DNA from: a virus
DNA length: 28,758 nt
Virus genome (UHGV): UHGV-0099614
Reading direction: 5' to 3' (one strand)
Position 1 is the stretch's first letter. Each line of letters begins with the position of its first letter. Below are positions 9,001 through 15,000 of this stretch, in pieces. Made by a program: the position numbers.

Positions 9001-12000
9001 TGTGCCCATAAGACACAATGTTCTCTAATTTAGTGTATGCTTTATTGGTTACGAGAAGACCGTAAGACGATCCCGAACCTTTAAGTGTAATGTCCCCCAG
9101 ATAATCATAGGCGTGTACACGTTGGGTTGCCCCGACTGTATCACCGAGCATCTTTAAGTTGAAATCCGAGGCATGGCAGTTAAATATCGTTTCTGCCATA
9201 TTTTCTCCGGAATAATGAGCACGGACTCCTGTCGAACCAATAAATTTAGCGTCATAGTTGCCGTAATCAAGAACGAGTGGTGACGCGATATCGTACACCC
9301 CTTGCTTTATTTTTAATGTTCCACCGAAAGGCCACGATGTAAGCGGGTCTTGATATATTTCATTTTTTATTGCAAATAGCTCCTCTTGGAGATTTTTGCC
9401 GCTATTAGTGCCAATGTGAGCAGCTCCTTCATCTGATTGAAGTAACTGCTTTAACTGATCAGGATCGTACTTCAGCACATTCTGAAAATAGAACTGCTGC
9501 GAACCATACGCATCATATACAGCCATTGAATGGCCTTGCTCAGTTACAAATTTGGCAATCTGCCCGTTGTACACAGGATATCCGGCAGCATTGATAACAA
9601 TTGGCTGAGAAACAGGGACGTGAGATCCGTCTTCATTCTCTACATAAACCTGAATCTGGTTTTCAGGATTTACCGGGTCAGTGTCAATTTTTCCGATATA
9701 AATTTTGCCATTGGCTACGGCTTTAAAAGAACGCGCCATAGTGAAGAGTTGCGAAGGCATGCTGACCACAACATTTGCGGCGATATCTGACATTTCATTG
9801 CTCCAGACGAATGATATGATGCAATCATGATGTGATTGCATACCGAAATGGCACTATTGAATATTTATCCAGTAGGTTACGATGCCATTCCACCCAACTG
9901 GTGAGGCATCAAGGATGTACAGCAAATACGACGAGGCACAGTTTCACTTGAGACTTCCGCATGAACTCCACGCGAAAATTAAACAGTGTGCGAAGATGAA
10001 TAACAGTTCGCTGAACTCAGAGATAATTGCAGCGATTGAAGAATCATTGGCTAAACAAAGCTCTGCATCAGTTTACATTGACGATGCAGAGCGTATGGCA
10101 GAACAACAATCTGATATGGTTAAGAAAATTGTCTTTGATACGCTCAAGGAGCTATATAAAAAAGACAGCAACTAACCATCCGTGGCTTTCCGTTACTTCT
10201 GGTTATCATCACTGTTCATCCAGTACATGATGCCTAGCCTTGATATGGTTTTCTTATCTGATTCTGGAAGTGAGTTGTAAAACGAGCGCCAAGCAGAAGA
10301 GCGTCTTACAGTTGTATCAACGATGCTTTCTGGTGCTTGTTTTACTGCCAGCCTTGCTGCTTTCTGGAATTCTGGTGAACGGAGCAAGGTTTTTCATGAT
10401 CGTCTGCCACTGCTGATTTTGCAGATCTGCAGCATACTTCTGAGCTTCTGCTGCATACTTTGCGCTTTTATCAGAACTGCCACCTTTCCCGCCTTTTTCA
10501 TGGCAATAAGGTTCCTCGCCGCGCAGTTTTCTGCCCAGCTTAAATGCATATAACATGGCTATCTCCCGTGATTCAGGAAGTCGATTAGTTCTTCGCGTGT
10601 GGCGCTGTAAAAAGTCACGTCATCCACGCCTTTAAAGTATTTCTTGATGGTTCCGACACGCTTAAGGCCAATCATTGCGCAGTACATCTGACCGTGGCGG
10701 AATTTGCGTGCAGCGAACGATGTTACGCACTGAACGGTGGTGTTAGTCAGAATGTATCGCCAGAACGCCAGCCCGATTTCCTTGCTGAATCCACGAACCT
10801 CTGGCAGGTACATGGCGTGGCAATCGAATGTCAGCGGCTGAATCTCCTGATAGTAAACAATGCCGCCGAACTGCCCGTGCACGTTCACCTCAAAGTAACG
10901 GCAATCATGTTTATAGTCGTATCCATCACCGTTGTTGCTCCCGGCAATAATGTCAGGGTGATTTCCGACTGCTTCGATCAGGTCGATGTTTCGCGTTGGT
11001 TTGAACTGAATCATTACTGCTCCGCGATTATCTTGATGGTTGTGGCAGTAAACGCCGCACCATTTGACTGAATGGTTAACGTGCTGCCATTTGTGGCAAG
11101 AAAGCCGTCTTTATCCACGCTGAAGAACGTAGCTAACAAGATGTTATCGGTTGTTGTCGCCGAGTTGCGACTGCTTACCAGTGTGTCAGGAACAGAGCCG
11201 GAAAAGGTTAGCTGCATTGACCTGTTGGCGGTTCCGCTGGGCCACGTCCCGACGATCGACAGCTTGAAGAACAAGGTTTTGTTCTCGTTGAACACAACCA
11301 TCTTGTTGTTAACGGTGTCGAAGAATGGTGCCAACGTGCCGGATGACGGCGTGAGCGTTTTCAGCAGGCTAACAAGGTTGGTCGGCGCTGTCGGGATGGT
11401 TACAGATACGCCAGAGTAAACAACCTCTGACTTCTTGCGAGTAGTGGCATACTCCAGAGCATCGATGCGCGTTTCATGGTCTGAAACCTGCGATTCCAGC
11501 GACTGAACTCTGGTATCAAGCGACGCAATATCGCTTTCATTCTGAGCGATTCGCGTTTCATGTTCCTGAAGAGTTGATTCTGCCTGGCTGATTCGCTCCT
11601 CATGATTAACAAGCGTTGCTTCCGCAGCAGAAATTCGCTGCTCATGGTCAGCGAGAATCACATCCTGCTCATCGTTTCTGACCTGTGCATCATAAGCGCC
11701 CTGTCCGGCCTCGTTGGCCTTGTTCGCCACGTTACCAACATCAGTACCCTGTGCGATAACGTACAGCAGATATGACTGCGAGAAGATATTGCGTGGAAGG
11801 ACTGATGTGTCGAGCCGCGTAGCCTGGATGATTACCGGCACATTGAGATTCGAATCAGCCATTAACATGCCTCCATGCCTTGCCATTTACAATTCTACTA
11901 ACCTTTGAATTGTGAATTCCAAATAATTTAGCAACTTCACACTGAGGAAATCCATTGGCAACCATTTCTTTTATCTTTATGACATCATCATTAGATATTT

Positions 12001-15000
12001 TAGAATTACCATTCCTTTCTCCTTTTACATTACCTCTCGATTCCAATCCATATGAGTGTGAGATGTTTCCTGATGGAGTAACCCATTCAAGATTTAGATA
12101 GTTATTATTATATTTATCACCATCTATATGATTAACCTGTAACCCTTCAGCAAATCCACCGACAAAGTGAGATGCAACAAGCTTATGTATTAGTATGTTC
12201 TTTTTTACGCCATCCTTATATAAGCACACATACTTATATCCATTTACGTTATGATTATGCTTCAGCCACCTCCCCTTAATAAGACGCCCCCTCAAATTTA
12301 CTCTTGAATGCGAGTAAACTCTACCATCATTAGTGATGGCGTACAGTCCTTCATATCCTTCGATATCTTTTGCGTTTTCACTTAACATATCTACTCCTTG
12401 AGTTTCGATTTATGTTACACGAATAGAAAGGCCTGATAATGTAACAGGACCTTTTGCAATAACTCTGAATTTAAATCCAATGAGACGTCTAACTCGACCA
12501 ACTTTTCGCCATAAAACGCGATTGTCATATACAAATGGTTTTTGTAATACGACCATTTGCTCACGACCGTAATTAATTCCATCTGTAGTGGCTGATATAA
12601 ATATTCTATCTATTCTATCACACACGCCGCCAGATGTTTCTAATTCAAGGTCATTTATTAAAACGTTATCAGCCTTTATTAGAGGGGAATATAAAATATG
12701 CTCTTGTTGTTTTTCGTATTGTGAAGATATATCGAATTGCAATTTCCCGGTCACGGACTCCAGTTTATCGCCGCACGTTATCTGATTGCCTTCGTAAATG
12801 AAGTCGATAGCGCGGTACACATCGTCATAAAGGCCTGTTTTCAACACACACCATTGCGGACCATTGGCGCTTGAAGATGCGTCGTACACCAGAACATGGC
12901 GCGGAAGATGGATAATCAGAAGCTCATGCGCATCAAATCGCAGCGATTCCATCACGCCATCAGCCAGTTCATCAGCAGTGTAGGAGCGGAGTATTTTCTC
13001 AATGCTCGCGCTGGCGATTGGTGATACCTGACCGGAACCGATGATATACACAGACGGCGCACCTGTTGCCGGATTGCTGATGAACGCATACGAATCAGCG
13101 AATGGCGTTTTGCAGTAAGTCCCGGCAATGCCTTTCTGCACCATCAGTGATGGCTGTGCGACATACAAAGCAGCACCAACGGTGGTTGCACCAGTCAGGG
13201 AGAAATATTCAATCGTCGATGAACCAAAACAGACGATGAAATCTCGCCATGTGCCGATACCGATGATGCCGTCCGGCTGCGATTCTGCGCGATATTGTGC
13301 GCTGTATCGGTCAGGGTGCGATTCGTCTTCAAGGTCAGTGATAAACCATGAATCAGTTCCGTCTTTTGACCACGCATAACGCCCACGTAAGCGCGTAATG
13401 TCGCGAACTGAACCTAACTCGTACTGTGTGAATCCGCTGTCTGTAGGCCAGTTTGAGACGGTTTTAACCGTGCCATCATAGCGATACTCGACCAGTTGAC
13501 CATTAACGCCTACCGCCTGTGATGTTCGACCGTGCGCCATTGATACGCGACCACTTCCTGCAACATCACCGACTTCACTTTCGCCCTTATACAACTTGCC
13601 ACCGCAAACGCGATAAACAGCATTCTGCGCCATGTTGTACTCGACGCCCCGCGATACGCCGTTCACATCAGAACGTTTGGCAATGCCCGGGAATGAGCGA
13701 AGATATCCGCTGCTGTTGAGTATTTCTTTGGGTGTAGCCAGCATATTCACTGGAAGATAGTCGATATAGTCGGCGTTTCGGAAGTCTTTGCCGACACCTT
13801 TCATAAGCGGAAGTTGCTGAATCGGCATTATTCGCTCCCGTTATCGCAAGGTTCCTTTCGGTGGAAGTAATTCCAACCGTTCCACTTCGCCAACTGGTTA
13901 CCGCTACCAACAGGCATACGGTTTGGATATACGTTTTACCGAGCATGATGTCTTTTCCGGTGTGTCCGTGACATACAGTCCATACACCAACGATATCTTT
14001 ATATGGTATGTAGCTGACACCTTCCAGACCATCGTTACCACTTGGCCCAGTGATTAACACAGATGCTATAGCAATAGCCCCGCCACTTATCGCCGCTATT
14101 ACGCTATTTCGTAGTGCCGGTGACATTGCCATTCAATCTGTCCTCGCGCTCTTTGCGCTTGTAGTACCAGTTGATGCCAAATGTGCCGACAGTACAAAGA
14201 ATACCAATGATGACAGCCCAGTCATTCAGGGAGAGAATGCCACCCATCGCAGTCAGTCCTCCGAAGCTGTAACTGAACCATTCTCTGATTTTGTCCATAC
14301 GGTACATGCTCTACCCCTTCATTGAGGGGATTTGCTCTATTTAATTAGGAATAAGGTCGATTACTGATAGAACAAATCCAGGCTACTGTGTTTAGTAATC
14401 AGATTTGTTCGTGACCGATATGCACGGGCAAAACGGCATGAGGTTGTTAGCGCAACCTCTTGCCACCCGCTTTCACGAAGCCAGCCATTGCGCTGGTTTT
14501 CTTTTATGCAAAGCACACCGCACCGTAGCCACAGCGGATAGATGGTCATCAGAATCCTCCTTTCTTCTTGGACTGCGGTTCCTCGCGTTCACGGCGGCGC
14601 ATTTCAGCAGACTGTTGGTCTGTATCATAAATAGCGCCATTTGCCTGAATGCAATACACCGTGCCGGTATTGCCATGACGATTGAGACGAAGGATTAGTT
14701 CGGTTTCACCAGGTGGAACACTGTCATCAAAAGCACCTTCACGATGGATCCCCACCCAATAATCGCAATCCTGTTCAATCTGCCCTGTATCGCGCGAGTC
14801 ACTTGGTAATGGGCGTTTATTGGTTCGGCTTTCCAGTGCGCGGTTAAGCTGTGTCAGAAGCACAACAACGCAATCAAGCTCTTTGGCAAGGTTCTTCAGT
14901 CCTTTGGTGATCATGCCGTAAGCAAGGTCGTTGCGATCGGCCTTCTCAGCGGTCATTAGTGTCAGGTAGAGCCTGCTGTCCATAAACTGGCGGTGTATAG

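Follow-up and report, generated by a model that had tools for sequence, protein, structure and literature searches.

In the viral genome UHGV-0099614 (UHGV), a free-standing gene for an HNH endonuclease lies at the junction between gene 10 and the tail-needle gene (gene 26) of a P22-like phage module. From the whole stretch of 28,758 nucleotides (hereafter the window), we conclude, with a probability of roughly 0.7, that this gene is an I-HmuI-like HNH homing endonuclease gene (HEG) that resides at the gene 10/needle junction of P22-like (Lederbergvirus) phages and spreads by intron-less homing with co-conversion of the flanking DNA. The gene and its surroundings are arranged as follows.

11855..12388, minus strand: free-standing HNH homing-endonuclease gene, 177 codons plus stop (open reading frame listing, Pfam, PDB and fold)
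12389..12409, minus strand: spacer from the gene 10 stop to the HNH ATG, 21 nucleotides (sequence)
12410..13828, minus strand: gp10 homologue (packaged-DNA stabilisation/head closure), full length (Pfam Phage_stabilise, 2e-283)
12410..12728, minus strand: foreign AT-rich 3' end of gene 10, approximately codons 367-472 plus stop, 319 base pairs (bp) (blastn break, composition)
12729..13828, minus strand: Sf6-type body of gene 10, the recipient backbone (94.3% nucleotide identity to Sf6 gene 8)
11014..11862, minus strand: tail-needle gene, gp26 homologue with an Sf6-type knob (Phage_tail_NK, 1e-117; 96% nucleotide identity to Sf6 gene 9 from 11864 on)

The open reading frame (ORF) of the HNH gene is intact, running from an ATG at 12388 to a TGA at 11855-11857. 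In Pfam, its product matches NUMOD4 (PF07463) over residues 7-57 (49.5 bits, 5e-13; curated cut-off 23.4) and HNH_3 (PF13392) over residues 67-108 (39.3 bits, 5e-10; curated cut-off 24.8), together with a weak, sub-threshold helix-turn-helix at residues 129-168 near the C-terminus. The protein also matches phrog_59, 'HNH endonuclease', in PHROGs (2e-49) and the 'homing endonuclease' (HEase) model of PADLOC (1e-31); an NCBIfam profile search returned no match. RefSeq names this allele, hereafter allele A (WP_000947776.1), a NUMOD4 domain-containing protein. Among solved structures, I-HmuI (PDB 1U3E) alone is related to it by sequence (phmmer, E=8e-21, residues 7-174). Moreover, an AlphaFold2 model built from 33 homologues (mean predicted local distance difference test score, 89.6) has 1u3e_M as its sole significant Foldseek match in the PDB (E=3.9e-10, probability 1.00, 179 aligned columns). 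The modelled elements are β-strands at 16-18, 24-26, 52-58 and 61-66, a helix at 67-75, strands at 84-87 and 100-103, a helix at 105-114 and three C-terminal helices. This corresponds to the fold and domain order of I-HmuI, with an N-terminal β DNA-binding region, a ββα core, a helical linker and a C-terminal helix-turn-helix. The catalytic residues of the ββα core are N86-H87...N99...N108 and H111. H75, N87 and N96 of I-HmuI are equivalent to H87, N99 and N108, which are invariant across the 33 homologues. Judged by sequence and predicted fold, the protein belongs with the I-HmuI/NUMOD4 HNH endonucleases, and the Pfam, PDB-sequence and fold searches agree with the NUMOD4/HNH_3 assignment made in the initial annotation.

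The gene is also under selection. The window protein is one residue apart from an 88-member Escherichia coli cluster (P0001). Compared with the Citrobacter allele, synonymous divergence (dS) is 0.44 and nonsynonymous divergence (dN) 0.06, giving an ω (dN/dS) of 0.14, which indicates purifying selection; compared with E. coli E2863, there are 0 nonsynonymous changes at a proportion of synonymous differences (pS) of 0.063. A chance ORF is ruled out by the profile, PDB and fold matches together with this selection. Membership in a defence system was likewise rejected, as PADLOC matched its 'homing endonuclease' models only.

At the junction, the HNH gene is fitted closely to both neighbours. At the 21-nucleotide spacer, the sequence AGGAGTAGATATGTTA is invariant across five divergent HNH+ loci; the spacer holds a strong Shine-Dalgarno sequence, AAGGAG, at 12394-12399, 5 nucleotides from the HNH ATG. 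It agrees with needle nucleotides 8-28 at 14 of 21 positions, a level reached by 23 of 5000 shuffles, and may be a degenerate remnant of the first ~28 nucleotides of the needle gene. At the other end, the HNH ORF overlaps the needle start by 8 nucleotides (11855-11862, ATGGCTGA), where A-ATG-GCT-GA is read in two frames: the T of the second needle codon is required for the HNH stop, and the needle Shine-Dalgarno sequence (GGAGG) is located within the 3' end of the HNH gene. This 3' junction (TGGAGGCATGTNAATGGCTGA) is kept in all enterobacterial junction alleles. A scan for σ70 promoters and terminators found none on the strand of the HNH gene, and RNA folding around its start was unremarkable (z-score -0.33), with no regulatory hairpin.

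No gene occupies this junction in P22, Sf6 or HK620. The two genes are separated by 3 nucleotides in P22, in line with the initial annotation, which called them adjacent, and their equivalents overlap in TAATG in Sf6. In HK620, the junction span is ~547 bp shorter than in the window, and genes 10 and 26 alone are annotated. The position of the HNH gene between gene 10 and the needle gene, with the needle ATG at 11862, was described correctly, but the spacing differs slightly from the near abutment on both sides that had been stated, with a spacer upstream and an overlap with the needle gene downstream. Small inserts at the junction of phages Gally, JEP4 and 720R6 were considered and set aside; in Gally, the one checked, the insert is merely a longer needle gene.

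The foreign DNA extends beyond the HNH ORF. The HNH gene has a guanine-cytosine (GC) content of 35%, compared with 51% for the gene 10 body and the needle gene, which bears out its description as AT-rich relative to its neighbours. The AT-rich tract continues ~320 bp past the ORF into the 3' end of gene 10, so that the composition anomaly covers 11865-12728. A blastn comparison with Sf6 gives 94% identity over 13833-12729 and 96% over 11864-10900, with no homology in between. Since homology stops at 12729 and resumes at 11864, an 864-bp block (11865-12728) replaces 316 bp of Sf6. Besides the HNH gene, the block includes the final ~106 gene 10 codons, in which GC content at third codon positions (GC3) is 19%, compared with ~60% in Sf6. 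The step is equally sharp along gp10 when it is compared with Sf6.

gp10 residues 1-360: amino acid identity 97-100%, third-position identity 77-97%, GC3 0.43-0.63 (Sf6, 0.40-0.63)
gp10 residues 361-472: amino acid identity 60-73%, third-position identity 20-33%, GC3 0.09-0.27 (Sf6, 0.57-0.67)

The shared AT-rich composition indicates a common foreign origin for the gene 10 tail and the HNH gene, and we presume from these sequences that the tail is a co-conversion tract or a cleavage-resistant allele. The block explains the sharp mosaic boundary inside gene 10 and the occurrence of the last ~106 gp10 residues in two very different versions.

Two short elements within the tail are conserved.

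12633..12650, minus strand: 18-mer CCTTGAATTAGAAACATC (conservation scan, alignment A5)
12612..12620, minus strand: extended -10-like motif TGATAGAAT, ~225 nucleotides upstream of the HNH ATG and 12 nucleotides downstream of the 18-mer

The 18-mer is the longest run without any variation, even at synonymous sites, in five divergent HNH-linked tails that are otherwise 75-80% identical, and exact copies are present in 8 of 10 HNH+ loci and in 26 true IMG/VR loci. It could be a binding site of the enzyme, an operator or a recombination signal. The -10-like motif is retained as TGGTAAAAT in a divergent tail via two amino acid changes. The pattern TGnTAnAAT occurs 5 times in the window against 7.4 expected, which is not above chance, and its support lies in conservation alone; an internal promoter for the HNH gene at this motif is speculative. 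In one IMG/VR tail (L022, 2568526730_000009), a 9-nucleotide in-frame duplication (ATAGATAGA) directly follows the -10-like motif, and owing to this duplication, 250 nucleotides rather than the usual 241 separate the 18-mer from the gene 10 stop.

The block has moved between phage backbones. The window tail is 96.5% identical to the tail of another locus, L011, whose gene 10 body is of the P22 type (94% identical to P22 and 84% to the window body). In addition, dS is lower in the tail (0.09-0.16) than in the body (0.27-0.97). The presence of the tail on both Sf6-type and P22-type bodies and its lower divergence indicate that the block has recently passed horizontally between backbones. Depending on the genome, the foreign tract has its left edge at one of two sites 33 nucleotides apart, and its right edge lies within the first 9-25 nucleotides of the needle gene, with different needle types beyond. 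Such edges would be expected if breakage near the site were followed by repair on an HNH+ template, with co-conversion reaching into gene 10. The acquisition did not take place in the window genome, as the same block is present in 52 complete E. coli genomes, in Escherichia phage HZ41 and in 26 IMG/VR contigs.

To describe the distribution of the block, we surveyed 5,426 complete E. coli genomes. An Sf6-type gene 10 body is found in 920 of them and the AT-rich tail in 52, with the HNH gene downstream in 52/52. Approximately 94% of the E. coli prophages with an Sf6-type gene 10 lack a junction HNH gene; ~6% carry the block. The 52 tail-bearing genomes comprise 34 with allele A, 2 with a partial allele A and 16 with allele B (WP_021514124.1; 181 residues, ~50% identical to allele A, at the identical position), an overlap (34 + 2 + 16 = 52) derived from the counts and the listed strain names rather than from a complete cross-tabulation. 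Independently of this survey, an exact-match scan of IMG/VR with the tail 18-mer gave 29 matches, 3 of them unrelated and 26 true tails. Twenty-two of these tails are followed by an intact HNH gene (listed as nine of allele A, nine of allele B and three of other alleles), three are cut at the contig end yet start with the HNH N-terminus, and one is not assessable, giving an HNH gene in 25/25 assessable cases. An AT-rich tail with an empty junction was found in 0/52 E. coli genomes and 0/25 assessable IMG/VR contigs; tail and HNH gene are therefore linked in 77/77 loci. Among isolated phages, HZ41 alone has the tail, with allele B. Collectively, the identical junction is polymorphic for the presence of the gene: P22, Sf6 and HK620 lack it, and HZ41 and the 52 E. 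coli genomes have it.

Two single loci depart from the usual arrangement. In E. coli M160133 (NZ_CP022164.1, 1923119-1924708), ~830 bp rather than ~50 bp separate the tail from the core of allele B, pointing to a further insertion downstream of gene 10 and ahead of the HNH gene. In IMG/VR contig 2861079508_000003 (L030, ~2480-2530), which also came from the 18-mer scan, the junction HNH gene is broken after codon 5 by a sequence starting GGTAATGACTCCAACTTATT, which looks like an IS1 terminal repeat and would then exemplify in situ inactivation of an HEG.

The same distribution bears on whether the protein could be a packaging or replication accessory, comparable to the terminase-associated HNH proteins of HK97-like cos phages and needed for processing of virion DNA. 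Such a role would suit a gene in the late structural operon that adjoins head-completion genes. However, P22, Sf6 and HK620 form virions without it, and ~94% of the related E. coli prophages lack it; unlike the gene for HK97 gp74, it is neither beside the terminase nor universal in its group, and the NUMOD4 and helix-turn-helix architecture and the kinship with I-HmuI point to a sequence-specific HEG. We regard this role as extremely improbable.

The junction is occupied by more than one enzyme. At least eight HNH alleles, ~44-89% identical, are located at this position in E. coli, Citrobacter and Providencia prophages. The junction homologues compare with the window protein as follows.

P0002, Citrobacter: 87% identity
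P0003, uncultured assembly: 60% identity
P0005, uncultured assembly: 52% identity
P0011, uncultured assembly: 48% identity
P0017, Providencia rettgeri: 44% identity
P0020, uncultured assembly: 43% identity

The enterobacterial loci share one geometry, with a 21-nucleotide spacer, TAA-ATCGAAACTnAAGGAGTAGAT-ATG, and a 3' end, TGGAGGCATGTnA-ATG-GCT-GA; the Providencia spacer is 27 nucleotides long rather than 21. At this single site, the HNH cores are flanked by conserved ends of 48 nucleotides on the 5' side and ~21 nucleotides on the 3' side. Related proteins are found elsewhere in such phages. A sister clade of 172-residue proteins, whose genes separate the late antiterminator from the holin, does not have the W-R-H-V-N-G terminus overlapping the needle start. 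Another HNH gene is found between gene 4 and gene 10 in UPF_BP1 and in some E. coli prophages, and the UPF_BP1 protein shares the MLSENAKDI...NHID family signature with the proteins of the antiterminator-holin site.

E. coli K56-43-un (L049, 3151-5797) has an HNH gene on either side of gene 10, allele A downstream and a gene for a 194-residue HNH protein upstream. The upstream gene adjoins a 93-nucleotide pseudo-copy of the gene 10 5' end, and the upstream HNH fragment is matched in ~18 other E. coli genomes. The surroundings of gene 10 in this strain look like a small 'HEG island' around an essential gene. Taken together, this pseudo-copy and the likeness of the junction spacer to needle nucleotides 8-28 suggest that such HEGs insert within the beginning of the gene that follows and carry a new start for it.

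If the gene spreads by homing, it would be transcribed as part of the late structural operon, with its own AAGGAG site serving for translation. The enzyme would nick or cut the HNH-less allele carried by a related phage that co-infects or is already resident, close to the 10/26 junction or the 3' part of gene 10, and the break would be repaired from the HNH+ genome, with the HEG and the adjacent 3' ~320 bp of gene 10 copied together. There are two candidate targets: the 10/26 junction, as in classical homing, or a site towards the 3' end of gene 10, close to where the tract has its left edge. The latter would make co-conversion of the tail obligatory, as in T4 SegG, for which cleavage inside the neighbouring gene reportedly entails obligatory co-conversion. 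The copied tail diverges from the recipient allele and would therefore presumably be uncleavable. Furthermore, the 3' end of the HEG supplies the Shine-Dalgarno sequence and start codon of the needle gene, by which the essential operon would stay intact.

Co-conversion of a flank with the HEG appears compatible with the linked 319-bp tail (77/77), its younger age and its two body types. The inclusion of the gene 10 tail in the block, in the manner of co-conversion, strengthens the homing reading. The initial annotation proposed an intron-less homing event. Its proposal is supported by the absence of the gene from P22, Sf6, HK620 and ~94% of the E. coli prophages and by the foreign composition, but the event was not a clean insertion of an ORF, as the 864-bp block shows, and it did not occur in this genome; endonuclease activity and homing themselves we infer.

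Several observations weigh against this account. First, the donor lineage of the AT-rich block was not found in phage, GTDB and protein searches. In a distant blastn search of the tail against 50,697 phages, HZ41 alone exceeded 70% identity; the HNH protein, run against GTDB species representatives, had a single, irrelevant archaeal match, and a protein search with the 112-residue tail gave fragments only. Second, three of four catalytic residues of I-HmuI are kept (H75, N87 and N96), but the second metal ligand, D74, is replaced by Asn (N86). N86 is invariant in the 33 homologues, which makes the Asn a clade trait rather than a sign of decay. Third, a near-identical tail occurs beside three HNH cores with a mutual nucleotide identity of only ~54%, and allele A is found with two tail types, which indicates that cores are also exchanged between the conserved 48-nucleotide 5' and ~21-nucleotide 3' ends. 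Tail and enzyme are therefore not always one travelling unit, which simple homing does not predict. Finally, ordinary homologous recombination between mosaic phages could give the same pattern without any action of the nuclease.

Carried further, this last point becomes an explanation in its own right, in which the HNH gene and the gene 10 tail are swapped as a module by ordinary homologous or illegitimate recombination and the HNH gene is a passenger 'moron', possibly inactive on phage DNA. P22-like virion modules are indeed highly mosaic, the needle type switches directly on the right side of the block, the histories of tail and core are separable, and the D74 equivalent is Asn. Passive exchange fits poorly, however, with a perfect linkage of tail and HNH gene (77/77), a junction geometry strictly conserved in at least eight alleles and three genera, purifying selection on the enzyme, an architecture that is that of site-specific HEGs, and a block younger than its flanks. 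We therefore consider it unlikely.

With regard to the origin of the block, the junction is also occupied by an HNH gene in Providencia rettgeri prophages, whose gene 10 is low in GC throughout and has a tail only 62% identical to that of the window. These prophages are plausible as the kind of donor, not as the donor itself. In these prophages (L015/L016, 2180-3973), gp10 has 597 residues, with a ~125-residue insertion after approximately residue 130, and GC content is uniformly 0.42-0.44, without the compositional step at the HNH junction that marks the enterobacterial loci.

The exchange of cores leads to a further reading, which is possible though doubtful. The junction might be a multi-allelic HEG cassette site at which enzymes are swapped and displace one another, with the tail and the HNH gene acting like an immunity/toxin pair in competition between phages or between a prophage and a superinfecting phage. 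The 'resistant' tail would then always be paired with the enzyme and would carry the 18-mer at 12633-12650 and possibly an internal promoter. A stronger form of this idea, in our view quite unlikely, is that the enzyme is a domesticated inter-phage weapon or exclusion factor that cuts superinfecting or co-infecting HNH-less P22-like phages. The tail would be a linked 'immunity' allele, the gene might be expressed from an internal promoter in the tail and possibly in the lysogen, and the divergent alleles would reflect an arms race at the cassette site. The insertion of at least eight cores (44-89% identical) between conserved ends at one site, the association of one tail type with three cores, and the 18-mer invariant at synonymous sites along with the conserved TGnTAnAAT motif would all be understandable on these terms. 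Marker exclusion by T4 SegG/SegF and by I-HmuI/II of SPO1/SP82 is reportedly a precedent. By contrast, the promoter-like motif is no commoner than chance, the RNA fold around the start is unremarkable, and the block is present in only ~6% of prophages and persists in defective ones without obvious benefit. Besides, a weapon of this kind overlaps with homing and does not exclude it.

The prophage that carries the gene in the window is itself defective. Its features, from the integration site onward, are as follows.

3913-3987: tRNA-Arg(CCT), the argW integration site of the prophage
4113-5306: integrase
5460-8014: gtrA, gtrB and type-specific gtr
8081-9841, minus strand: tailspike
9882-10175: mnt
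10317-10556: gp7 stump, 79 residues
13668-14132: ORF with an N-terminal lysozyme fragment, joined directly to gene 10
14104-14307: holin
14549-15076: DnaB C-terminal fragment, followed by cII and cI

After mnt, the order is gp7 stump, gp14, needle gene, HNH gene and gp10. Terminase, portal, scaffold, coat, gene 4, gp20, gp16, the nin region and the late antiterminator are all absent from the prophage in the window. This P22/Sf6-like prophage is a deletion remnant, with the deletions evident at 13829-15076 and 10176-10556. Because head, terminase, injection and late-regulator genes are lost, it is unable to make virions. The HNH gene probably has no late transcription here and is an intact, stranded relic. 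An intact prophage in E. coli 503440 has the same HNH gene and gene 10 tail, nucleotide for nucleotide, which suggests that the decay of the window prophage is recent. The P22-like module named in the initial annotation is therefore what is left of a deleted prophage and not a complete operon of tail and head genes.

Other parts of the window contain traces of further elements. On the minus strand, 22149-25775 encodes a 1094-residue protein with the PIN domain of the TPR-GreAB-C-PIN system (PF20698, 6e-16). It is adjoined by a gene for a 109-residue HetE-N domain protein (PF20701, 3.5e-33), and a resolvase gene is nearby (26755-27381). The PIN/HetE-N pair, which lies in an AT-rich island, is a candidate for a defence or conflict module. 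On the plus strand, a 350-residue ORF at 20343-21395 has a weak match to the replication-associated ORF2/G2P family (PF23343, 8e-7). This ORF and a nearby C-terminal integrase fragment (17983-18279) suggest remnants of another small mobile element.

The junction gene offers a clean natural case of a free-standing HEG in well-studied temperate enterobacterial phages, as P22, Sf6 and HK620 have both genetics and high-resolution virion structures. Empty and filled alleles are available in easily handled phages (Sf6 or HK620 versus HZ41), which makes homing, co-conversion and allele competition directly testable. For comparison or engineering of gp10 and the tail needle, it matters that one version of the gp10 end travels with a nuclease. 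Only three features go beyond expectation, namely the structure of a multi-allelic cassette, the foreign tail as an obligatory companion and the lack of variation in the 18-mer even at synonymous sites; the remainder is as predicted by current knowledge of phage HEGs.

Among known systems, the closest is I-HmuI, the HNH nicking homing endonuclease of the DNA-polymerase intron of Bacillus phage SPO1. The window protein (177 residues) aligns with I-HmuI (174 residues) over its full length at ~29-35% identity, and the NUMOD4 β-region, the HNH ββα core and the C-terminal helix-turn-helix follow in the same order. In contrast, I-HmuI resides in a group I intron of a Bacillus myophage, whereas the window gene is free-standing in an enterobacterial temperate podophage, and D74 of I-HmuI is Asn in the window protein.

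In its presumed mode of spread, the gene resembles SegF, SegG and MobE of T4, which are reportedly free-standing and home without an intron. These are intergenic HEGs between conserved essential genes; the flank in the neighbouring gene is co-converted, and the cleavage site may lie at a distance inside the neighbour. A distant site of this kind would explain the obligatory gene 10 tail. Unlike the window protein, the Seg enzymes are GIY-YIG nucleases, and MobE is an HNH enzyme of different architecture. Homing is experimental in T4 and deduced here, and the window host is temperate.

Within the P22-like phages, HNH genes are known from ε34 (gene 31; PMC2629481) and from SEN22, between terminase and portal (PMC5261728). 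Like the HNH gene of UPF_BP1, these represent the same phage group and enzyme class as the window gene at different insertion sites. A full-text literature search found HEGs at such other sites and none at the 10-26 junction, although it did not cover the likeliest source, Casjens & Thuman-Commike 2011 (Virology 411:393). More generally, phage HEGs are frequently located beside or inside essential genes and border regions of high inter-phage nucleotide identity (Barth, Dunham & Seed 2023, PMC10448857), an account that does not mention P22, NUMOD4, I-HmuI or temperate phages. The tract in the window is ~0.3 kb long, unlike the tracts of >10 kb described there, but as in that account, the HEG adjoins an essential structural gene and lies exactly at a mosaic boundary.

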